DNA of 64,000 bases from Escherichia coli (GTDB lineage: Bacteria; Pseudomonadota; Gammaproteobacteria; Enterobacterales; Enterobacteriaceae), in assembly GCF_003334405.1 (NCBI RefSeq), contig NZ_QOWM01000002.1. One strand, written 5' to 3'. This document shows, one piece after another, positions 1-9,587 of the stretch. The stretch's first letter is position 1. Every line of letters begins with the position of its first letter. The position numbers and the translations under genes were made by a program. The notes under the pieces were generated by a model. That model did not search any database and was not told where the DNA came from. It saw nothing but the letters and a program-made list of their open reading frames with translations.

Positions 1-3000
1 AACCAACCGGAGGACGAATGGCGATTAAGCCGCCCGCCATGCCTTTACCGACATAGTCGTTGGCATCACCGGTCAGGTACAGTTCCACGCCGCCCGCGTT
101 CCACACGCCGAAGCTCTGGCCTGCGGTGCCGTTGAAGTACGCTTTGATAGGATCGGCTGCCAGCCCCTGATCGCCGTGCGTCTGGGCGATATAGCCTGAA
201 AGCGACGCGCCGACAGAACGGTCGGTGTTGCGAATATCGAACCAGAAGGTTTTGCTCTGGCGCTCATCGACAAACGGTTTCGCCTGTTGCAGCAACTGCG
301 CGTTCAGCAGGCCGTTATCAAACGGCGGGTTGTTTTCGGTGCAGTAGAGTGCCTTACCTGGATGCGGTTCGGCAGTCTCCAGCAGCTTCGACAGCGCCAG
401 CTTCTGCTGTTTGGCGGTGAAACCGTCCAGCTCTTTCAGCAGGTCGGTGCGACCAATCAGATCCACCAGACGTGTTACGCCAAGCTGTGCCATCAGCTCG
501 CGGGTTTCACGGGCGATAAACTCAAAGTAATTCGTCACCTTGAATGGCAGGCCGTGATAGTGGTTCTTACGCAGTTTGTCATCCTGAGTTGCTACACCCG
601 TTGCGCAGTTGTTCAGATGGCAAATACGTAGATATTTACAGCCGAGCGCCACCATCGGGCCAGTGCCGAAGCCGAAGCTTTCTGCGCCGAGAATCGCCGC
701 CTTGATGATATCGACACCCGTTTTCAGGCCGCCATCGACCTGCAAACGGATCTTGTGACGCAAGCCGTTAGCAACCAGCGCCTGCTGGGTTTCAACAAGC
801 CCCAGCTCCCACGGACAGCCTGCGTATTTCACCGATGAAAGCGGACTTGCGCCGGTGCCGCCGTCATAGCCTGCGATGGTGATCAAGTCCGCATAAGCTT
901 TTGCCACGCCAGTCGCGATGGTGCCTACTCCCGGTTCGGAAACCAGCTTCACGGAGATCATCGCTTTCGGGTTAACCTGCTTGAGGTCGAAAATGAGCTG
1001 CGCTAAGTCCTCGATAGAGTAGATATCGTGGTGCGGCGGCGGGGAGATCAGCGTCACTCCGGGCACCGAATAGCGCAGTTTGGCGATGTAAGGCGTGACT
1101 TTATCACCCGGCAACTGACCGCCTTCGCCTGGCTTCGCGCCCTGGGCGACTTTAATCTGAATGACGTCGGCATTGACCAGATACGCCGGAGTAACCCCAA
1201 AGCGACCGGAAGCCACCTGCTTGATGCGCGACACTTTGTTGGTGCCGTAGCGCGCCGGGTCTTCGCCGCCTTCACCGGAGTTCGAATTACCGCCGATGCT
1301 GTTCATCGCTTCCGCCAGCGCCTCGTGGGCTTCCGGGCTTAACGCGCCGATAGACATCGCGGCGGTATCAAAGCGTTTAAACAGTTCGCTTGCCGGTTCA
1401 ACATCAGCAATGTTGACCGCGTTTTCACCCGGCGTAATTGCCAGCAGATCGCGCAGCGTGGTTGCCGGACGCTCATTAACCAGCTTCGCGTATTCCTGAT
1501 AGTCGCTGTACTCGCCGCTTTGTACCGCTTGTTGCAGCGTGCGCACCACGTCCGGGTTGTAGGCGTGGTATTCGCCGCCGTGGACGTATTTCAGCAGACC
1601 GCCCTGGCTGATGGGCTTACGCGCCAGCCAGGCACGTTTCGACAGATTCAGCAGATCCTGCTGGAAGTCTTCAAAGCTTGCTCCACCAATGCGGCTGACC
1701 GCCCCCTGGAAGCACAGGCCCACTACATCATCGTGTAGACCGACCGCTTCAAACAGTTTCGAGCAGCGGTAAGAGGCGATGGTGGAGATGCCCATTTTGG
1801 ACATGATTTTGTACAAGCCTTTGTTGATGCCGTTACGGTAGTTGAGCATCACGGTACGATAATCTTTGGCAATCGCATGGGTGTCTACCAGGCGGCCCAG
1901 CGTTTCATAGGCAAGGTATGGATAAATAGCCGTCGCGCCGAAGCCCAGCAACACGGCGAAGTGGTGCGGATCGCGGGCGCTGGCGGTTTCGACGATGATG
2001 TTGGCATCGCAACGCAGGCTTTGATCGACCAGACGGGTCTGGATCGCGCCAACCGCCATCGGGGCTGGAACCGGCAGGCGATCTTTAGCGATATTCCGGT
2101 CGGAGAGCACCAGCAGCACGGTGCCGCTACGTACCATTTTTTCGGCTTTGTCGCACAGCTCTTTGACTGTCGCTTCGAGCGTGGTTTTAGTGACGTCAAA
2201 GGTGATATCCAGCGTATCTGCGCGGTAGTGCTCCTCTTTCATCGTCGTGAGCTGTTTGAAATCGGAGTAGAGCAGAATCGGCGATTTAAAGCTTAAACGG
2301 TGCGCCTGGCCCTCTGCTTCGCAAAAGACGTTCATTTCACGACCGATACTGGTGGCGAGCGACATAACATGCGCTTCACGCAGCGGGTCGATTGGCGGGT
2401 TAGTCACCTGGGCAAACTGCTGGCGGAAGTAGTCGTAAATAATGCGCGGCTGACTGGAGAGCACGGCGAATGGGGTATCATCGCCCATCGAACCGACCGC
2501 TTCCTGACCGTTTTCGCCCAGTACGCGAATTACGGAGTCCAGCTCTTCCGCGCTGTAGTTAAACTGTTTCTGGTAGCTGGCAAGCGTGTCGTCGTCCAGT
2601 TCGCGGCTACCCACTTCTTCATCGGGCAGATCTTCAAACGGTACCAGTCGGCGGACGTTTTTCTCCATCCACTCTTTATATGGATGGCGGCTTTTCAGAT
2701 CGTCATCGGTTTCTGCCGAGTGCAGAATACGCCCACTGCGGGTGTCGATAACCATCAGTTCGCCTGGCCCGACGCGGCCTTTTTCGACCACTTCGTCAGG
2801 CTGGTAATCCCAGATACCGACTTCAGAGGCGCAGGTGATGAGCTTATCTTTGGTGATGACGTAGCGCGCCGGACGCAGACCGTTACGGTCGAGGTTACAG
2901 GCGGCAAAACGACCGTCGGACATCACGATGCCCGCCGGGCCATCCCACGGCTCCATATGCATGGAGTTAAAGTCAAAGAAGGCACGCAGTTCCGGGTCCA

Positions 3001-3943
3001 TATCCGGGTTGTTCTGCCAGGCGGGTGGTACTAATAGACGCATGGCGCGGATGATATCCATCCCGCCTGCCAGCAGCAGTTCCAGCATGTTATCCATCGA
3101 ACTGGAGTCAGAGCCGGTTTCGTTGACGAACGGTGCGGCGTCGTGCAGGTCAGGGATAAGCGGTGTCTGGAATTTATAAGTACGCGCACGCGCCCATTGG
3201 CGGTTACCGGTGATGGTGTTGATTTCACCGTTATGCGCCAGATAGCGGAACGGTTGCGCCAGCGGCCAGCGCGGTACGGTGTTAGTGGAGAAGCGCTGGT
3301 GGAACAGGCAAATGGCCGATTCCAGACGCAGGTCCGCAAGATCCAGATAAAAGCGCGGCAGATCCGTCGGCATACACAGACCTTTATAGATGTTCACCAG
3401 ATTCGACAGGCTACAGACGTAGAAGTCTTTGTCGGCTTCGAGACGCTTTTCAATGCGGCGGCGGGCGATAAACAGACGGCGCTCCATATCGCGTGGACGC
3501 CAGCCTGCCGGGGCGTTCACAAAAATTTGCTCAATGCGTGGCAGAGAGGAGAGGGCGATTTCACCCAGCACGCCTTCGTTAGTGGGGACATCACGCCAGC
3601 CCACAATCGACAAGGTTTCGCGTTGCAGTTCTTCTTCAACGATGCGGCGTGCGGCAGCGGCGAGTTCAGGATCTTTATTCAGGAAGAGCATCCCGACAGC
3701 GTAGTTTTTTGCTAAACGCCAGCCGCGCTCCTGCGCAACGATGCGAAAAAAGCGATCCGGTTTTTGTAACAGCAAGCCGCAACCGTCGCCGGTTTTACCA
3801 TCGGCGAGAATCGCGCCACGGTGCTGCATGCGGGCCAGTGCGTGTATTGCAGTACGCACTACCTTGTGGCTAGGTTCGCCTTCTATGTGGGCGATCAGGC
3901 CGAAACCACAGTTATCCCTCTCAAGGGATTTATCGTACAACAT
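1..3943 (-). CDS. gltB: glutamate synthase large subunit, N-terminal part (3' end lies beyond window start)
   Basis: Reverse complement at 3943 gives ATG then MLYDKSLERDNCGFG; frame stays open to position 1; no track ORF occupies this frame, consistent with a run-off ORF. Confidence 0.9.
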   Translation of the reverse strand, partial: MLYDKSLERDNCGFGLIAHIEGEPSHKVVRTAIHALARMQHRGAILADGKTGDGCGLLLQKPDRFFRIVAQERGWRLAKNYAVGMLFLNKDPELAAAARRIVEEELQRETLSIVGWRDVPTNEGVLGEIALSSLPRIEQIFVNAPAGWRPRDMERRLFIARRRIEKRLEADKDFYVCSLSNLVNIYKGLCMPTDLPRFYLDLADLRLESAICLFHQRFSTNTVPRWPLAQPFRYLAHNGEINTITGNRQWARARTYKFQTPLIPDLHDAAPFVNETGSDSSSMDNMLELLLAGGMDIIRAMRLLVPPAWQNNPDMDPELRAFFDFNSMHMEPWDGPAGIVMSDGRFAACNLDRNGLRPARYVITKDKLITCASEVGIWDYQPDEVVEKGRVGPGELMVIDTRSGRILHSAETDDDLKSRHPYKEWMEKNVRRLVPFEDLPDEEVGSRELDDDTLASYQKQFNYSAEELDSVIRVLGENGQEAVGSMGDDTPFAVLSSQPRIIYDYFRQQFAQVTNPPIDPLREAHVMSLATSIGREMNVFCEAEGQAHRLSFKSPILLYSDFKQLTTMKEEHYRADTLDITFDVTKTTLEATVKELCDKAEKMVRSGTVLLVLSDRNIAKDRLPVPAPMAVGAIQTRLVDQSLRCDANIIVETASARDPHHFAVLLGFGATAIYPYLAYETLGRLVDTHAIAKDYRTVMLNYRNGINKGLYKIMSKMGISTIASYRCSKLFEAVGLHDDVVGLCFQGAVSRIGGASFEDFQQDLLNLSKRAWLARKPISQGGLLKYVHGGEYHAYNPDVVRTLQQAVQSGEYSDYQEYAKLVNERPATTLRDLLAITPGENAVNIADVEPASELFKRFDTAAMSIGALSPEAHEALAEAMNSIGGNSNSGEGGEDPARYGTNKVSRIKQVASGRFGVTPAYLVNADVIQIKVAQGAKPGEGGQLPGDKVTPYIAKLRYSVPGVTLISPPPHHDIYSIEDLAQLIFDLKQVNPKAMISVKLVSEPGVGTIATGVAKAYADLITIAGYDGGTGASPLSSVKYAGCPWELGLVETQQALVANGLRHKIRLQVDGGLKTGVDIIKAAILGAESFGFGTGPMVALGCKYLRICHLNNCATGVATQDDKLRKNHYHGLPFKVTNYFEFIARETRELMAQLGVTRLVDLIGRTDLLKELDGFTAKQQKLALSKLLETAEPHPGKALYCTENNPPFDNGLLNAQLLQQAKPFVDERQSKTFWFDIRNTDRSVGASLSGYIAQTHGDQGLAADPIKAYFNGTAGQSFGVWNAGGVELYLTGDANDYVGKGMAGGLIAIRPPVG

Positions 3944-4617
3944 ATCGTGAACCTCCCCCAGGCTCTGCGGGAACCCCACTTCCGAACCGCTGCGCACGGG
4001 CACAGAAAGAGCGTGGCGACGGGGTTTGCGTGTCATACGCGCGCCTCGCATTCGCCCCCTTGTTGTCCTTTTCGCATCGGTTAATACGGTGAAGAGGGGA
4101 TCTCAATTACTGCATAAATATGATGAGCAGGCTGCTCATCCAGAAAGCTTCCAGCGGATTTCCAACTTATCGGGAAAGCTGATACAGGTCAAATGGCAAG
4201 CTTATTGGTACAGAAATGTGCTTTAGCGCAAAATTCTTTATTAAATGACTGAAATTAAAATGGATTTTATCTTTAAGGCTAAAAGGGAAGTCGTTAGAGA
4301 AACAGTCAATTCCTGACTGTCATAAAGGTGTGTTAACCCTTATCCTGCCTTGAACTGACGACAAAACCAGCATTTTATACTGCCTTAATTGGTAATGACG
4401 TTTCATGCTACTGTTTTTGCCTAAAATCCATCAGGAGATAAAAAAATCTGACACAAGATAAGCAAAAGTGATTTATGTGATTATGCATGAAATTTCGGTA
4501 ATTTTGATTGATTATGCAGTTGATAAAAGCAGGCCGGGACGATTGATCCAGGTCATCGCCGAATTGAGCTAAAAATGGCAGGCTTTGGCCTCTTTTCAAG
4601 GCGCGGTCTATCAGATT
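3944..4617. promoter_or_regulatory. divergent gltB / yhcC control region, long AT-rich leader
   Basis: 674 bp non-coding, AT-rich, between divergent starts; gltBDF is known to have a long upstream region bound by Lrp/IHF/CRP/ArgR. Individual sites not resolved here. Confidence 0.4.
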
Positions 4618-5547
4618 ATGCAGTTACAGAAATTAGTCAATATGTTTGGTGGTGATCTCACCCGTCGTTATGGGCAAAAGGTGCATAAGCTGACGCTGCA
4701 CGGCGGTTTTAGCTGCCCTAACCGTGACGGTACCATCGGGCGTGGTGGCTGCACATTCTGTAATGTTGCCTCGTTTGCCGATGAAGCGCAGCAGCATCGT
4801 TCCATTGCCGAGCAACTGGCGCACCAGGCGAATTTAGTTAACCGCGCTAAACGCTATCTGGCCTACTTTCAGGCGTATACCAGCACCTTTGCGGAAGTTC
4901 AGGTGCTGCGTTCTATGTATCAGCAGGCGGTGAGCCAGGCCAATATTGTCGGTTTGTGTGTGGGTACCCGCCCGGACTGCGTGCCGGATGCGGTGCTGGA
5001 TCTGCTTTGCGAATATAAGGACCAGGGTTACGAAGTGTGGCTGGAGCTGGGGCTACAAACCGCCCACGACAAAACACTGCATCGCATCAACCGCGGCCAT
5101 GATTTTGCCTGTTATCAGCGTACAACCCAGCTGGCACGTCAGCGCGGGCTGAAGGTGTGTTCCCACTTAATTGTCGGCCTGCCTGGCGAAGGGCAGGCTG
5201 AATGTTTGCAAACGCTGGAGCGAGTGGTTGAAACCGGCGTGGACGGCATAAAGCTGCATCCGCTGCATATTGTGAAAGGCAGCATTATGGCGAAAGCCTG
5301 GGAAGCGGGGCGTTTGAACGGTATTGAACTGGAGGATTACACGCTCACTGCCGGAGAAATGATTCGCCATACGCCACCGGAAGTGATCTACCACCGCATT
5401 TCCGCCAGCGCCCGTCGCCCGACGCTGCTTGCTCCGCTGTGGTGCGAAAATCGATGGACGGGAATGGTCGAGCTGGATCGCTATCTGAATGAACATGGCG
5501 TACAGGGATCGGCGCTGGGACGTCCGTGGCTACCTCCAACGGAGTAG
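4618..5547 (+). CDS. yhcC: radical SAM protein YhcC
   Basis: Track ORF 4585..5547; internal ATG at 4618 gives the 309 aa protein MQLQKLVNMFGG...; CxxxCxxC-type motif (CPNRDGTIGRGGCTFC). Confidence 0.9.
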   Translation: MQLQKLVNMFGGDLTRRYGQKVHKLTLHGGFSCPNRDGTIGRGGCTFCNVASFADEAQQHRSIAEQLAHQANLVNRAKRYLAYFQAYTSTFAEVQVLRSMYQQAVSQANIVGLCVGTRPDCVPDAVLDLLCEYKDQGYEVWLELGLQTAHDKTLHRINRGHDFACYQRTTQLARQRGLKVCSHLIVGLPGEGQAECLQTLERVVETGVDGIKLHPLHIVKGSIMAKAWEAGRLNGIELEDYTLTAGEMIRHTPPEVIYHRISASARRPTLLAPLWCENRWTGMVELDRYLNEHGVQGSALGRPWLPPTE

Positions 5548-5642
5548 GTCGTTGAGGGGAATTCCGCATTTCTCACACAATTTATAACGTAACTGTCAGA
5601 ATTGGGTATTATTGGGGCAGGTTGTCGTGAAGGAATTCCCTA

Positions 5643-7979
5643 ATGAAGCAAATTCGTCTGCTGGCGCAGTATTATGTTGACCTGATGATGAAGTTAGGTC
5701 TGGTGCGCTTCTCAATGTTGCTGGCGCTGGCCCTCGTCGTTCTTGCCATTGTGGTACAAATGGCGGTAACCATGGTGCTGCATGGTCAGGTCGAAAGCAT
5801 TGATGTTATTCGTTCTATCTTCTTTGGTTTGCTGATTACGCCGTGGGCGGTCTACTTTCTATCGGTGGTCGTCGAGCAACTGGAGGAGTCACGACAACGT
5901 CTGTCACGGCTGGTGCAAAAACTGGAGGAGATGCGCGAGCGCGATTTGAGCCTCAACGTTCAGTTAAAAGATAATATTGCCCAGCTAAATCAGGAAATTG
6001 CCGTTCGTGAAAAAGCGGAAGCAGAACTGCAGGAAACCTTCGGCCAACTGAAAATTGAAATCAAAGAGCGCGAAGAGACACAAATTCAGCTCGAGCAGCA
6101 ATCCTCATTCTTACGTTCCTTCCTTGATGCTTCACCCGACCTGGTTTTTTATCGTAACGAAGATAAAGAGTTTTCCGGCTGTAACCGCGCGATGGAGCTG
6201 CTGACCGGAAAAAGCGAAAAACAACTGGTTCACCTGAAACCTGCTGATGTTTACTCACCGGAAGCCGCCGCAAAAGTCATTGAAACCGATGAAAAAGTGT
6301 TCCGTCATAATGTGTCACTGACCTATGAACAGTGGCTGGATTACCCGGACGGGCGCAAAGCCTGCTTTGAAATCCGTAAAGTGCCGTACTACGACCGCGT
6401 GGGTAAACGTCACGGTTTGATGGGCTTTGGTCGCGACATTACCGAGCGTAAGCGGTATCAGGATGCGCTTGAACGGGCCAGCCGCGACAAAACGACGTTT
6501 ATCTCCACCATCAGTCACGAATTGCGTACACCGCTGAACGGTATCGTCGGTCTGAGCCGCATTCTGCTGGATACCGAACTCACCGCCGAGCAGGAAAAAT
6601 ATCTCAAGACCATCCATGTTTCGGCCGTCACGCTGGGGAATATCTTTAACGATATTATCGACATGGATAAGATGGAACGGCGCAAGGTCCAGCTTGATAA
6701 TCAACCGGTTGATTTCACCAGCTTCCTTGCCGATCTGGAAAATCTCTCCGCATTGCAGGCGCAACAAAAAGGATTGCGCTTTAACCTGGAGCCGACGCTG
6801 CCATTACCGCATCAGGTCATTACCGACGGGACGCGTTTACGGCAGATCCTGTGGAACCTCATCAGTAACGCCGTCAAATTCACCCAGCAAGGCCAGGTTA
6901 CCGTGCGCGTGCGCTACGATGAAGGCGATATGCTGCATTTTGAAGTGGAAGACTCTGGTATCGGCATTCCGCAGGATGAGCTGGATAAAATTTTCGCCAT
7001 GTATTACCAGGTGAAAGACAGTCATGGCGGTAAACCTGCCACCGGCACCGGTATTGGTCTGGCCGTTTCTCGTCGTCTGGCGAAAAATATGGGCGGCGAT
7101 ATTACGGTTACCAGCGAACAGGGCAAAGGTTCAACCTTTACGTTGACGATCCACGCACCGTCGGTAGCAGAAGAGGTCGATGATGCGTTTGATGAAGACG
7201 ATATGCCTTTACCGGCGCTGAATGTGCTGCTGGTGGAAGACATTGAACTGAACGTGATTGTTGCGCGTTCTGTGCTGGAAAAATTAGGTAACAGCGTTGA
7301 TGTCGCCATGACCGGCAAGGCGGCGCTGGAGATGTTTAAACCGGGCGAATACGACCTGGTGTTGCTGGATATTCAGTTGCCAGATATGACCGGGCTGGAT
7401 ATCTCTCGTGAACTGACGAAACGTTATCCGCGCGAGGATTTACCGCCGCTGGTGGCCTTAACCGCTAACGTGCTGAAAGACAAACAAGAGTACCTCAATG
7501 CTGGAATGGATGATGTGCTGAGTAAGCCGCTTTCTGTTCCGGCGCTAACCGCGATGATCAAGAAATTCTGGGATACCCAGGATGATGAGGAGAGTACGGT
7601 GACGACAGAAGAGAACAGTAAATCAGAAGCATTGCTCGATATTCCCATGCTGGAACAGTATCTCGAACTTGTAGGACCGAAGCTGATCACCGACGGGTTA
7701 GCGGTGTTTGAGAAGATGATGCCGGGCTATGTCAGCGTGCTGGAGTCGAATCTGACGGCGCAGGATAAAAAAGGCATTGTTGAGGAAGGACATAAAATTA
7801 AAGGTGCGGCGGGGTCAGTGGGGTTACGCCATCTGCAACAGCTGGGTCAGCAAATTCAGTCTCCTGACCTTCCGGCCTGGGAAGATAACGTCGGTGAATG
7901 GATTGAAGAGATGAAAGAAGAGTGGCGTCACGACGTAGAAGTGCTGAAAGCGTGGGTGGCAAAAGCCACTAAAAAATGA
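5643..7979 (+). CDS. arcB: aerobic respiration control sensor histidine kinase ArcB
   Basis: 778 aa ORF with N-terminal TM segments, PAS, HisKA (SHELRTPLN), HATPase, receiver and Hpt domains. Confidence 0.97.
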   Translation: MKQIRLLAQYYVDLMMKLGLVRFSMLLALALVVLAIVVQMAVTMVLHGQVESIDVIRSIFFGLLITPWAVYFLSVVVEQLEESRQRLSRLVQKLEEMRERDLSLNVQLKDNIAQLNQEIAVREKAEAELQETFGQLKIEIKEREETQIQLEQQSSFLRSFLDASPDLVFYRNEDKEFSGCNRAMELLTGKSEKQLVHLKPADVYSPEAAAKVIETDEKVFRHNVSLTYEQWLDYPDGRKACFEIRKVPYYDRVGKRHGLMGFGRDITERKRYQDALERASRDKTTFISTISHELRTPLNGIVGLSRILLDTELTAEQEKYLKTIHVSAVTLGNIFNDIIDMDKMERRKVQLDNQPVDFTSFLADLENLSALQAQQKGLRFNLEPTLPLPHQVITDGTRLRQILWNLISNAVKFTQQGQVTVRVRYDEGDMLHFEVEDSGIGIPQDELDKIFAMYYQVKDSHGGKPATGTGIGLAVSRRLAKNMGGDITVTSEQGKGSTFTLTIHAPSVAEEVDDAFDEDDMPLPALNVLLVEDIELNVIVARSVLEKLGNSVDVAMTGKAALEMFKPGEYDLVLLDIQLPDMTGLDISRELTKRYPREDLPPLVALTANVLKDKQEYLNAGMDDVLSKPLSVPALTAMIKKFWDTQDDEESTVTTEENSKSEALLDIPMLEQYLELVGPKLITDGLAVFEKMMPGYVSVLESNLTAQDKKGIVEEGHKIKGAAGSVGLRHLQQLGQQIQSPDLPAWEDNVGEWIEEMKEEWRHDVEVLKAWVAKATKK

Positions 7980-8091
7980 CCCCGGCTAGACCGGGGTGCG
8001 CGAATACTGCGCCAACACCAGGGAAATCTTGGCTGCGCCGTAAATTATTATGATGAGTTACAAGGGCACAGCACTGTTTTTCAGGCCGCAC
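7971..8091 (-). ncRNA. arcZ: ArcZ small RNA (RyhA/SraH), antisense overlap with arcB 3' end
   Basis: Reverse complement of 7971..8091 reads GTGCGGCCTGAAAAACAGTGCTGTGCCC...CACCCCGGTCTAGCCGGGGTCATTTTTT, matching ArcZ as I recall it, with terminal hairpin and U-tract. Confidence 0.85.
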
Positions 8092-8208
8092 GCAGTTAAG
8101 ATAGCAAAACTTAAATGATTTGTTACATGAATCAGTTAAATGTGTGATGCGTACCATTTTTATTAAAAAAATTAATGTGTTTCAGTCAATTGCGAAAGGA
8201 TGATCACA

Positions 8209-8862
8209 ATGAAGAAAATTGGCGTAATTCTGAGCGGATGCGGCGTCTATGACGGTTCTGAAATTCATGAAGCGGTGTTGACGTTGTTAGCTATTTCACG
8301 CAGCGGTGCGCAGGCGGTCTGCTTTGCACCGGATAAGCAGCAGGTTGATGTTATCAACCATTTAACTGGCGAAGCGATGACGGAAACGCGCAATGTGCTG
8401 ATTGAAGCGGCACGAATAACGCGCGGTGAAATCCGTCCTCTGGCCCAGGCCGATGCCGCTGAACTGGATGCGTTGATTGTGCCGGGGGGGTTTGGCGCGG
8501 CGAAGAATTTAAGCAATTTTGCCAGTCTTGGTAGCGAATGCACCGTTGACCGTGAATTAAAGGCGCTGGCACAAGCGATGCATCAGGCCGGAAAACCGCT
8601 TGGTTTTATGTGTATTGCCCCGGCGATGCTGCCGAAAATTTTCGATTTCCCGCTGCGTTTGACCATCGGTACTGATATCGATACCGCAGAAGTGCTGGAA
8701 GAGATGGGCGCGGAGCATGTGCCGTGTCCTGTCGATGATATCGTGGTTGATGAAGACAATAAGATTGTCACCACCCCAGCATATATGCTGGCGCAGAACA
8801 TTGCAGAAGCGGCGAGCGGCATTGATAAGCTGGTTTCCCGCGTGCTGGTTCTGGCTGAATGA
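8209..8862 (+). CDS. elbB: glyoxalase III-like DJ-1/PfpI family protein ElbB
   Basis: Track ORF 8200..8862; ATG at 8209 gives 217 aa [21 protein letters not shown]... Confidence 0.93.
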
Positions 8863-9587
8863 GTAAAAGCCGCTTAACGGTGTTTAGTTTCGTTCGCCGT
8901 TTTCTTTTGCGGTTAATGGTTGTCCTCGCCGTTTTCTGGGGCGGGGGCATCGCGTTGTTTAGCGTTGCGCCTGTTCCCTTCTCAGCGGTAATGGTCGAGC
9001 GACAGGTCAGCGCCTGGCTGCATGGCAATTTTCGTTACGTGGCACATTCTGACTGGGTCAGTATGGATCAAATCTCGCCGTGGATGGGACTGGCGGTGAT
9101 TGCCGCAGAAGATCAGAAATTTCCTGAGCACTGGGGCTTTGATGTCGCTTCCATTGAGAAAGCCCTGGCGCACAACGAGCGCAATGAAAACCGTATTCGC
9201 GGTGCTTCAACGATTTCTCAACAGACAGCCAAAAATCTCTTTTTATGGGATGGGCGTAGCTGGGTTCGAAAAGGGCTGGAAGCCGGATTAACGCTGGGGA
9301 TAGAAACGGTCTGGAGCAAAAAGCGTATCCTGACGGTTTACCTGAATATCGCCGAATTTGGCGACGGTGTGTTTGGCGTCGAAGCTGCGGCACAACGTTA
9401 TTTCCACAAACCCGCGAGCAAACTTACCCGGTCGGAAGCTGCATTACTGGCAGCTGTATTACCTAATCCACTTCGTTTCAAAGTCTCCTCGCCATCGGGC
9501 TACGTGCGTAGCCGTCAGGCGTGGATTTTACGGCAGATGTATCAGTTAGGCGGTGAGCCGTTTATGCAACAACACCAGCTGGATTAA
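8859..9587 (+). CDS. mtgA: monofunctional biosynthetic peptidoglycan transglycosylase
   Basis: 242 aa ORF; start ATG overlaps elbB stop (ATGA); GT51 motifs ([19 protein letters not shown]). Confidence 0.95.

Follow-up and report, generated by a model that had tools for sequence, protein, structure and literature searches.

A largely known two-way control region between gltB and yhcC in Escherichia coli, with a conserved and structured gltB leader

The 674 bp that separate gltB (minus strand) from yhcC (plus strand), at positions 3944–4617 of the window (the whole stretch of 64,000 bases of E. coli DNA analysed here), very probably contain the whole of the control DNA that serves the gltBDF operon on one side and yhcC on the other. 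Ammonia is assimilated along two routes, one of them through glutamate synthase, whose promoter is a classic example of long-distance activation by Lrp and IHF. The region would be built of four modules: a structured, non-coding leader of 216 nt (4159 to 3944), the gltBDF promoter with ca. 360 bp of AT-rich upstream DNA, a class II-type FNR-activated yhcC promoter, and G0-10702, a short RNA candidate that would run from the first yhcC codons back through the yhcC promoter toward gltB. Published work on promoters, regulator sites and short transcripts already accounts for nearly all of the gap; since known elements occupy it fully, the finding can be closed as an ordinary one. Published experiments have shown where the regulators act and with what effect, that FNR binds and that yhcC expression depends on it, where the RNAs end, and the chimera with GcvB. 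The present analysis provides the coordinates and shows that the leader is non-coding, that its hairpins covary, that the spacing is constant and that synonymous sites are frozen at the start of both genes. New here are the conserved gap length, the fixed distance from the gltB -35 element to the FNR box, the conservation of the leader with two covarying hairpins, and the frozen codons 1–30 of gltB and 1–10 of yhcC.

The gltB ATG lies at 3943–3941 (minus strand) and the yhcC ATG at 4618–4620 (plus strand), so that the coordinates and orientations given for the divergent region in the initial annotation were exact. Its ranking there among the longest non-coding intervals of the window was too cautious, this being the longest of 54 annotated gaps (runner-up 458 bp, median 97 bp). 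The label AT-rich is correct for the central ca. 360 bp (4160–4520, 34.3% GC) and wrong for the gltB-proximal part that forms the leader (3944–4159, 56.9% GC; 61.8% at 3944–4100), the whole gap having 43.8% GC versus 52.0% for the window. Only 8 of the 64,000 bases differ from E. coli K-12 MG1655 (3294668–3358667, reverse strand), and the stretch 3900–4660 is 100% identical to that strain between b3211 and b3212. The gap corresponds to MG1655 3354051–3354724, flanked there by yhcC and gltB as well, where the RefSeq annotation holds no feature inside it.

The sigma-70 core promoter of gltBDF, numbered as in PMC1784095, was located at 4164–4192 on the minus strand, with TTGACC (4192–4187) as -35 and TAAGTT (4169–4164) as -10 element, separated by a 17-bp spacer; the blocks TTGCCATTTGACC (-35) and CCCGATAAGTTGG (-10) hardly vary across the species aligned. 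We back-calculated the gltB start site, A4159, from the Crp site centred at -65.5 (PMC1784095), and as a cross-check the best Lrp consensus match then falls at -216 versus the published -215. The placement of the yhcC FNR box (see below) at -399.5 from gltB in PMC1802558 implies a gltB start 9 bp further downstream. The published Crp, Lrp and ArgR sites sit at their published distances from one start site, 4159, and the primers gltP1, gltP2 and gltcrp1 of PMC1784095 also map onto the window. Several global regulators had been expected at gltB, and the sites described in that work do map onto 4214–4520, all of them on the minus strand. Closest to the start is the repressing Crp-cAMP site AATTTTGCGCTAAAGCACATTT (4214–4235, -76 to -55), known from a footprint, a predicted site and the mutagenic primer gltcrp1, whose conservation across genera is limited to the half-site TAGCACATTT. 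It is followed by the IHF binding region (4234–4272, -75 to -113, coordinates converted from the start site at 4159), IHF binding being required for the activation of gltBDF by Lrp, and by the Lrp binding region (4300–4415) with three sites centred near 4311, 4374 and 4405 (-152, -215 and -246). The most distant is the region protected by ArgR from DNase I (4477–4520, -361 to -318) with its two ARG boxes, which includes an ARG-box-like sequence (TGATTGATTATGCA, 4505–4518) and the direct repeat family D1. An unconfirmed Fnr-like site, CTGATACAGGTCAA at 4179–4192, appears as a dashed box in Fig. 2 of PMC1784095.

Motif scans had been proposed as a check on these regulators, and they succeeded for Lrp, for which the consensus with one mismatch gave a single match in the whole 64-kb window (CAGCATTTTATACTG, 4368–4382). 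The scans for CRP, IHF, ArgR and FNR motifs showed no enrichment and missed or barely detected the known sites; no exact match to the IHF consensus was found within 4234–4272, and the Salmonella MarA motif was absent from two Salmonella loci. A scan of 3800–4800 for sigma-70-like consensus promoters gave zero sites, and the real promoters in the gap are weak and activator-dependent. In the model built on the published sites, IHF bends the DNA and allows Lrp at -152, -215 and -246 to activate RNA polymerase from a distance, and Crp (-65.5) and ArgR (-318 to -361) repress. The gltB leader with its internal 3' end, G0-10702 and the FNR box of yhcC are missing from the RefSeq annotation but all described in the literature, so the interpretation of the initial annotation is supported as right rather than new, its content being largely already known.

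The comparison included about 80 species of Enterobacteriaceae (77–81), with subsets of 68–72 used for the alignments. The length of the gap is conserved (656–688 bp in 77–81 species), and the distance from the gltB -35 element to the FNR box is 352–356 bp in 78 species, with all the length variation falling in the leader. Within this segment the Lrp region (4300–4415) has zero indels in 72 species, with an identity to E. coli of only 0.13–0.68. A spacing of 355 bp that stays fixed across genera despite sequence drift fits a phase-dependent nucleoprotein complex, which may extend to the yhcC promoter. For relatives beyond the Enterobacteriaceae, one genome scan and one protein search gave only relatives whose YhcC is at least 84% identical.

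The gltB 5' untranslated leader (3944–4159, minus strand), counted as 216 nt from A4159, is GC-rich and the most conserved part of the gap. Of 5417 E. coli genomes, 5413 carry it at 99% identity or more, in single copy and unannotated (no paralogous leader copies were found in E. coli), and the stretch 4104–4173 retains 0.85–1.00 identity to E. coli in species outside Escherichia. At its end, 8 nt upstream of the modern gltB ATG, the Shine-Dalgarno sequence GGAGG can be read at 3952–3956 (minus strand), within the block AGAGCCUGGGGAGGUUCACUGAUAUG that is invariant in the alignment. Such conservation could come from protein coding, be it a 31-codon extension as in the old 1517-residue GltB (ATG 4036), a longer one starting at ATG 4051, or a leader peptide. 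From both ATGs the frame indeed runs open into gltB in E. coli, GAGG-like sequences lie upstream of both, and the GC content is like that of coding DNA. However, ATG 4036 sits in an apical hairpin that has been deleted in Klebsiella, Raoultella, Kosakonia and others, while the frame of the conserved ATG 4051 relative to gltB varies (frame 0 in 21 species, frame 1 in 27 and frame 2 in 18) and often runs into stops. Different species read identical conserved nucleotides in different frames, the lengths of the indels are not divisible by three, and it is the modern start that has the invariant GGAGG and ATG. Given the split frames, the stops and the frame-switching we rejected both the old extension and the leader peptide, and consider a coding role extremely improbable; the stretch that begins at the old gltB start clearly does not code for protein, a result in favour of the current annotation.

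Instead, the leader shows a conserved arrangement of two hairpins around a single-stranded block, all on the minus strand. The first hairpin, P1 (4122–4140, +20 to +38; GAUGAGC-loop-GCUCAUC), has five of its eight pairs changed on both sides with pairing kept (e.g., GAUGGGC/GCCCAUC, GAUAAGC/GCUUAUC or GACGG/CCGUC) and was also detected as a hairpin by the terminator scan. It is followed by a near-invariant single-stranded block (4091–4121, +39 to +69) that reads AUAUUUAUGCAGUAAUUGAGAU(U/C)CCCUCUU in the alignments of 68–72 species, and that includes the mini-ORF AUG-CAG-UAA (4115–4107). The RNAalifold consensus then gives a long imperfect hairpin, P3 (4006–4062, +98 to +154), with the old gltB ATG at 4036 in its variable apical part. 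This is a G+C-rich stem-loop with a folding energy of -19.4 kcal/mol in E. coli; its apical helix has compensatory changes (one pair is UA in 44, CG in 13 and UG in 4 sequences of the RNAalifold alignment) and the apical hairpin is missing in Klebsiella, Raoultella and Kosakonia, while at the base AAGAG/CUCUU is replaced by GAGAG/CUCUC in Shimwellia. Over the leader, 11 pairs are changed on both sides versus 2.5 ± 1.1 in shuffles (0 of 500) and 1–6 in slid controls. The fold of the 149-nt leader RNA (see below) is no better than that of dinucleotide shuffles (z = +0.4), and Rfam 15 gave no match, at E values up to 1, in window positions 3000–9000 or in the Klebsiella, Enterobacter, Shimwellia and Cronobacter loci.

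The conservation downstream of the gltB start site might also reflect a function at the DNA level, i.e., further regulator sites (e.g., for Nac or Fnr) or an antisense promoter. The regulators proposed for gltBDF, Fnr and others included, outnumber the mapped sites (PMC1784095), the invariant stretches carry no covariation signal that would favour RNA or DNA, and a candidate RNA antisense to gltBDF, ECS0018, has been reported without coordinates. But the pairing of P1 and apical P3 is kept by compensatory changes, which argues for an RNA and not a DNA-level function, and a promoter-like site was found on neither strand; we regard a DNA-level explanation as quite unlikely. The nucleotide-level constraint also continues into the gene. 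The synonymous sites of gltB codons 1–30 (3854–3943, minus strand) are near-invariant across genera, in a stretch that contains the rare codons AGG and ATA. At conserved residues, the share of identical codons is 0.97–1.00 in codons 1–30 versus 0.42–0.74 in codons 31–150 (69 non-Escherichia species). Such a constraint on the leader and the first 30 codons points to a possible post-transcriptional layer.

An RNA 3' end has been mapped within this leader by Term-seq, at MG1655 3354657 (window 4011, +149; PMC7815308), 4 nt past the P3 core stem. A U-tract directly after the stem is absent, with ACGC lying between the core stem and UCUUUCUGUG, and P3 was not called by the terminator scan; in the Term-seq data set, the growth condition that gave this end came with neither a Rho nor a terminator score (PMC7815308). 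In the main reading, P1 would stabilise the gltB mRNA, and P3 may mark a point of premature termination or processing that would yield a leader RNA of ca. 149 nt and less full-length gltB mRNA, perhaps with the help of Hfq and GcvB; the 3' end could also simply be that of a decay intermediate halted by a stable hairpin. The involvement of GcvB is suggested by Hfq-CLASH chimeras that join it to a leader fragment at 4049–4078 (+82 to +111, minus strand; PMC7213987). The gcvB-gltB chimera was represented by five hybrids (-17.8 kcal/mol) in the transition phase and is absent from RIL-seq (PMC7213987 Supplementary file 3), and in our calculations the energy of the GcvB-leader duplex was not above that of shuffles.

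These features could be taken as a dedicated sensor, a riboswitch or attenuator in which the leader and the first 30 codons respond to nitrogen status (glutamine, glutamate, 2-oxoglutarate or charged tRNA) by switching between a terminator or sequestered form and an open one. The extreme conservation at the nucleotide rather than the peptide level, the two covarying hairpins P1 and P3 and a 3' end right after P3 would all suit it, as would the invariant mini-ORF with its single Gln codon (AUG-CAG-UAA) in the leader of a glutamine-consuming enzyme. There are also complementary changes specific to Escherichia, from UUCCCU to UCCCCU in the block and from GGGGAGG to GGGGGAGG in the Shine-Dalgarno region. 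Against this, Rfam provides no match and the candidate alternative pairings lack clear support: the duplex energy between the invariant block and the Shine-Dalgarno/start region equals that of shuffled controls (p 0.3–0.6), and the pairing of CCCUCUU (+62 to +68) with AAGAGGG at the P3 base, possible in most species, is not kept in Shimwellia. The mini-ORF AUG, moreover, has no upstream Shine-Dalgarno sequence, and its UAA is gone in three genera (Kosakonia, Phytobacter and Trabulsiella). A nitrogen sensor of this kind thus seems improbable to us. More generally, the first ca. 300 nt of the gltB mRNA, with P1, the invariant block, P3 and the start region with its 30 frozen codons, might form an undescribed cis-regulatory RNA domain of Enterobacteriaceae that sets glutamate synthase output after transcription start, whether by regulated premature termination or processing near +149, by controlling how ribosomes gain access or in both ways, perhaps together with Hfq and GcvB. 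We put this broader cis-regulatory reading forward tentatively, as a possibility that falls well short of an even chance. If true, it would put RNA-level control on top of a promoter whose known regulators have so far all been proteins, and the conserved structured leader, less described than the rest of the gap, is a modest lead.

At the other end of the gap, yhcC encodes a radical-SAM tRNA-modification enzyme used in anaerobiosis. Its FNR box TTGATCCAGGTCAT (4543–4556, plus strand, centre 4549.5) coincides with an FNR ChIP-chip site (PMC1802558), and yhcC is among the FNR-activated operons in FNR ChIP-seq (PMC3688515). The box has two mismatches to TTGAT-N4-ATCAA and is 0.99 conserved in 72 species; with two mismatches allowed there are 39 matches to the FNR consensus in the window versus 30.7 expected, which is not above chance, so the motif alone proves nothing. 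The yhcC start site, MG1655 3354077, comes from a single secondary analysis (PMC7967276 Table S1) and was listed as 'not known' by Myers 2013. The location of the box at -41.5 is arithmetic from its centre and that start, window position 4591. The FNR box serves yhcC rather than gltB. In the promoter-proximal part (4579–4617, plus strand), a weak CAGGCT (4579–4584) preceded by TG presumably acts as the -10 element, followed by the start and a 5' UTR of 27 nt, and the block AATGGCAGGC in this part is 0.98 conserved. The synonymous sites are frozen here too, in yhcC codons 1–10 (4618–4647, plus strand), with an identical-codon fraction of 0.96 versus ca. 0.55 downstream. A small hairpin (4588–4602, GCCU-CUUUUCA-AGGC in E. 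coli) lies across the yhcC start or, on the other strand, at +3 to +17 of G0-10702; its changes are compensatory, with 19 distinct stems in 38 distinct sequences and 179 Watson-Crick pairs, and a wobble asymmetry of 13 versus 8 fits either strand.

G0-10702 itself is a published short RNA candidate of the minus strand (4499–4604, MG1655 3354064–3354169; PMC7967276 text and Table S1) with a reported start at 4604; this start site, like that of yhcC, stems from the one secondary analysis, where it is backed by two 5'-end data sets (PMC7967276). A Term-seq 3' end at MG1655 3354141 (window 4527) would shorten it to 78 nt (PMC7815308). The presumed promoter, on the strand opposite yhcC, is formed by TTGACT (4640–4635) and TGCATAAT (4622–4615), which would place it within the first yhcC codons, with the -10 lying 10 nt from the reported start. 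G0-10702 might be a genuine trans-acting, Hfq-dependent sRNA with targets of its own. The RNA-seq report of Raghavan 2011, to the extent that it is cited in PMC4070566, has its abundance as Hfq-dependent, with lower levels in an hfq mutant, and describes it as lacking a terminator. The doubly supported start, the defined 3' end and the covarying hairpin at +3 to +17 also favour such a role. However, that hairpin may belong to either strand, the terminator scan found no Rho-independent terminator at the G0-10702 3' ends, and the folds of the 78- and 106-nt forms are no better than those of dinucleotide shuffles (z = +0.8 and +0.2). The conserved stretches all coincide with yhcC promoter elements, the FNR box and the -10 region, the rest being variable outside Escherichia; there is no Rfam family, and the entry was withdrawn from EcoCyc in 2019 for lack of evidence (PMC7967276). 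The Cappable-seq and Kim 2012 supplements have no entries at the gap coordinates. A trans-acting role is unlikely in our judgement, and G0-10702 would mainly arise as a by-product of the yhcC promoter or modulate it locally. The idea that the gap left room for leader elements or small transcripts was nonetheless borne out, by the 216-nt leader with its internal 3' end, by G0-10702 and by the FNR box serving yhcC.

Several known systems resemble parts of this region. Stem-loops at the 5' terminus, of the type found in the ompA 5' UTR, stabilise mRNAs. P1 is similar in that it is conserved, covaries and lies close to the 5' end, ahead of an A/U-rich single strand; it differs in starting at +20 and not at the very 5' end, and its stabilising effect is putative. 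The yhcC promoter resembles class II FNR-activated promoters in its TTGAT-N4-ATCAA-like box near -41.5, its ChIP occupancy and its listing as FNR-activated, although the box has two mismatches, the -10 is weak and the -41.5 comes from a later secondary analysis. For gltBDF, the closest system is the promoter region studied in E. coli K-12 by Paul, Blumenthal, Matthews and co-workers (PMC1784095), which is the same locus, with a sequence identical to MG1655; their model ends at the promoter, whereas the region described here also takes in the 216-nt leader, the yhcC promoter, the divergent RNA and the constancy of spacing across genera. The leader is comparable to the 5' UTR-derived fragments found by Term-seq (e.g., ChiZ and IspZ; Adams et al. 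2021, PMC7815308) in that its 3' end is defined and falls within a long 5' UTR, by a stable hairpin and ca. 38 nt downstream of an Hfq/sRNA contact. The gltB end was filed as 'internal' to the gene because the old start codon was used (PMC7815308), and its regulatory role is putative. Finally, G0-10702 is among the listed cases of divergent promoter-associated short RNAs (PMC7967276) and overlaps the 5' end of the yhcC mRNA by ca. 14 nt; its particulars are a presumed promoter inside the yhcC coding sequence and a transcript that crosses the yhcC FNR box.

The intergenic stretch between gltB and yhcC (3944–4617, 674 bp) is the longest among the 54 annotated gaps of the window, the second measuring 458 bp and the median being 97 bp, and carries no feature in the RefSeq annotation. 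The initial annotation had described it as an AT-rich divergent region; coordinates and length were exact, and the two genes indeed diverge, gltB lying on the minus strand (ATG of the current start at 3943) and yhcC on the plus strand from 4618 (entry 4618–5547). The AT-richness holds for the centre (4160–4520, 34.3% GC) but not for the gltB-proximal part (3944–4159, 56.9% GC), with 43.8% for the gap overall versus 52.0% for the window. The DNA is that of E. coli K-12, with eight base differences in the whole window from MG1655 (3294668–3358667, reverse strand) and 100% identity at 3900–4660; coordinates were converted as MG1655 = 3358668 − w, w being the window position. Further along, the arcB 3′ end (7984–8091, minus strand) carries the known small RNA ArcZ (Rfam RF00081, 120.8 bits), matching the MG1655 annotation.

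The architecture of the gltBDF promoter was described by Paul et al. (2007; PMC1784095), with Crp at −76 to −55 (centred at −65.5), IHF at −75 to −113, Lrp at −152, −215, and −246, and ArgR at −361 to −318. Using a mutagenic primer from that work we located the Crp 22-mer at 4235–4214 (minus strand), which therefore places the gltB start site at A4159; numbered from it, the sequence has a −35 (TTGACC, 4192–4187) and a −10 (TAAGTT, 4169–4164) on the minus strand. The window holds a single sequence that departs from the Lrp consensus at just one position; it lies at 4368–4382 (−216) and gives an independent check on this start site. Among the motif scans that had been proposed, that for Lrp was thus distinctive, but those for CRP, IHF, and ArgR were otherwise no better than chance, as was likewise an FNR consensus scan of the window. 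An ARG-box-like site (4505–4518) falls within the ArgR footprint. The sigma-70 promoter scan gave zero matches in the gap, as expected because these promoters are weak and activator-dependent. The sequence GATTATGCA appears three times on the plus strand (4609–4622, 4505–4518, and 4474–4487); two copies are the ArgR boxes, and the remaining one overlaps both the start codon of yhcC and the −10 presumed for G0-10702, a published short RNA candidate.

A YhcC genome scan provided 80 loci from different Enterobacteriaceae species, to which four further genera were added. The gltB-yhcC order is kept in every locus reaching gltB, with gaps of 656–688 bp that outside Escherichia are 66–76% identical to that of E. 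coli. The gltB leader (the 216-nt 5′ untranslated part of the mRNA, 4159 to 3944) and the core promoter are best conserved (0.85–1.00 at 4104–4173), the IHF/Lrp region is poorly conserved (0.13–0.68) yet free of indels, and hardly any variation occurs in the blocks next to yhcC (FNR box, −10 region, and 4604–4643). At the Lrp site nearest the promoter (about −152, 4304–4313), species outside Escherichia have in common a sequence that is 95% conserved but just 20% identical to that of E. coli, a lineage-specific change within an otherwise conserved site. By an alignment-free measurement, the gltB −35 and the yhcC FNR box (4187–4556) are 352–356 bp apart in 78 species, and gap length varies solely in the leader (228–258 bp from ATG to −35). 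This constant distance, kept although much of the DNA in between is only 13–68% identical to E. coli, fits a nucleoprotein complex dependent on helical phase, and suggests that the constraint on spacing extends to the yhcC promoter. Two resemblances inside the gap may be due to chance, one between an invariant leader block UUAUGCAGUAAUUGAGAU (4100–4117) and the yhcC start UUAUGCAGUUACAGAAAU (4616–4633), the other between the gltB −35 region, Fnr-like CTGATACAGGTCAA followed by AAATGGCAAGCTT (4171–4203), and the yhcC FNR box with AAATGGCAGGCTT (4535–4585).

On the yhcC side, FNR ChIP-chip assigned the site CGGCGATGACCTGGATCAATCGTC to "yhcC/gltB" (PMC1802558); it maps to 4538–4561, with the core box TTGATCCAGGTCAT at 4543–4556 (centre 4549.5). 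Myers et al. (2013; PMC3688515) listed yhcC among FNR-bound and FNR-activated operons with "TSS not known," and a later re-analysis of 5′-end data put its start at MG1655 3354077 (PMC7967276), here 4591. By simple arithmetic, the FNR box is centred at −41.5 from that start, the classical class II position. Both the box and the AATGGCAGGC block, the putative seat of the yhcC −10, are 0.98–0.99 conserved across genera. A small hairpin (4588–4602) between the −10 region and the start codon, straddling the reported start and corresponding to +3 to +17 of G0-10702, is preserved through compensatory changes in 19 distinct stems; it may belong to either the yhcC mRNA or the divergent G0-10702, the wobble asymmetry between the strands being 13 vs 8. 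In S. Typhimurium, MarA ChIP-seq reportedly gave a peak in the yhcC<>gltB gap, containing the motif GCAAACGCTGAAAAA (PMC10268841); this motif was found neither in the E. coli sequence nor in the two Salmonella loci examined. According to a 2026 preprint, YhcC substitutes in anaerobiosis for the oxygen-dependent MnmC step of tRNA modification; in more recent PGAP annotation the gene appears as mnmL. Public protein entries of YhcC relatives have 279–451 residues (324 for the E. coli cluster representative, 309 in K-12 RefSeq), a spread that may stem partly from differing start-site calls.

The extra leader elements and small transcripts anticipated by the initial annotation are present, but all had been published. 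Raghavan et al. (2011), as cited in PMC4070566, reported an Hfq-dependent RNA without a terminator in this gap, which became EcoCyc G0-10702 (MG1655 3354064–3354169 plus, here 4604 to 4499, minus strand). It was removed from EcoCyc in 2019; a 2021 paper with two 5′-end data sets considered it real and overlapping the yhcC 5′ UTR (PMC7967276). The identical-codon fraction (counted among conserved residues) is 0.96 in yhcC codons 1–10 vs about 0.55 further on, and the opposite strand of these codons carries TTGACT and TGCATAAT, likely the G0-10702 promoter, although it matches the reported start imperfectly, with 10 nt between the end of the −10 and that start. Two Term-seq 3′ ends are listed for the strand of gltB (PMC7815308), one within G0-10702 (MG1655 3354141, here 4527), with which this RNA would be 78 nt long, and one at MG1655 3354657 (4011). 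Each occurs once, close to the end of Supplementary file 1 and with no Rho or terminator scores, a placement that suggests the minimal-glucose sheet. Because it was placed relative to the old start codon, the 4011 end is classed as "internal, 25 nt into gltB" in that data set (PMC7815308); counted with the current start it is leader +149. Folding of G0-10702 and of the 149-nt leader RNA was no better than that of shuffled sequences. A 90-nt cis-antisense candidate of the gltBDF operon, ECS0018, was not detected by northern blot (PMC3175480).

Could the leader be coding? The old gltB start (ATG 4036) was rejected, as it is part of an apical hairpin that Klebsiella, Raoultella, Kosakonia, and others lack, and so was coding from the conserved ATG 4051, which is in frame 0, 1, or 2 relative to gltB in 21, 27, and 18 species, with frequent stops; identical conserved nucleotides fall into differing reading frames from one species to another. 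A mini-ORF (AUG-CAG-UAA) was likewise discarded, lacking a Shine-Dalgarno and, in three genera, the stop. At the current start, GGAGG and ATG are invariant. Comparative sequence evidence thus indicates that the leader is RNA, not protein. Its consensus fold has a 5′ hairpin P1 (+20 to +38, 4140–4122), a single-stranded invariant block (+39 to +69), a lineage-variable hairpin absent in E. coli and Salmonella, and a long hairpin P3 (+98 to +154, 4062–4006), all on the minus strand. Eleven pairs changed on both sides among 68 sequences, vs 2.5 ± 1.1 in column shuffles (0/500) and 1–6 in slid controls. With the added genera, five of the eight P1 pairs covary (e.g., Shimwellia GACGG/CCGUC) and the P3 base goes from AAGAG/CUCUU to GAGAG/CUCUC. 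Of 5417 E. coli genomes, 5413 carry one copy of the leader with at least 99% identity; the surrounding 1-kb region attains that level in only 3289.

With four bases between its stem and a broken U-tract, P3 does not conform to the canonical intrinsic terminator; the +149 end may have arisen by termination, either inefficient or Rho-dependent with subsequent trimming, or by decay that came to a halt at the hairpin. The invariant block did not pair more strongly with the Shine-Dalgarno/start region than shuffled controls did, although the block and the Shine-Dalgarno region show, in Escherichia alone, one suggestive pair of complementary changes. Hfq-CLASH recovered a statistically filtered GcvB-gltB chimera (five hybrids, transition phase) absent from RIL-seq (PMC7213987); its mRNA part is leader +82 to +111, and the duplex energy was not above shuffles. 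Constraint is also seen in gltB codons 1–30 (3854–3943, minus strand), with an identical-codon fraction of 0.97–1.00 vs 0.42–0.74 downstream in 69 non-Escherichia species; they include the rare codons AGG and ATA, which are conserved, and, at codons 5–10, a local hairpin (AUCCCU-UGAG-AGGGAU) with one compensatory synonymous double change, mismatched in about half of the species.

That the leader is a real post-transcriptional control element is, in our opinion, a tentative and rather doubtful proposal. No Rfam family matched it, either in E. coli or in four further genera, and the papers searched contained no description of a conserved structured gltB leader. As a conserved, structured, and non-coding element it is a modest but testable lead, within a gap wholly taken up by the two-way control region of gltBDF and yhcC, the parts of which are known from the literature.
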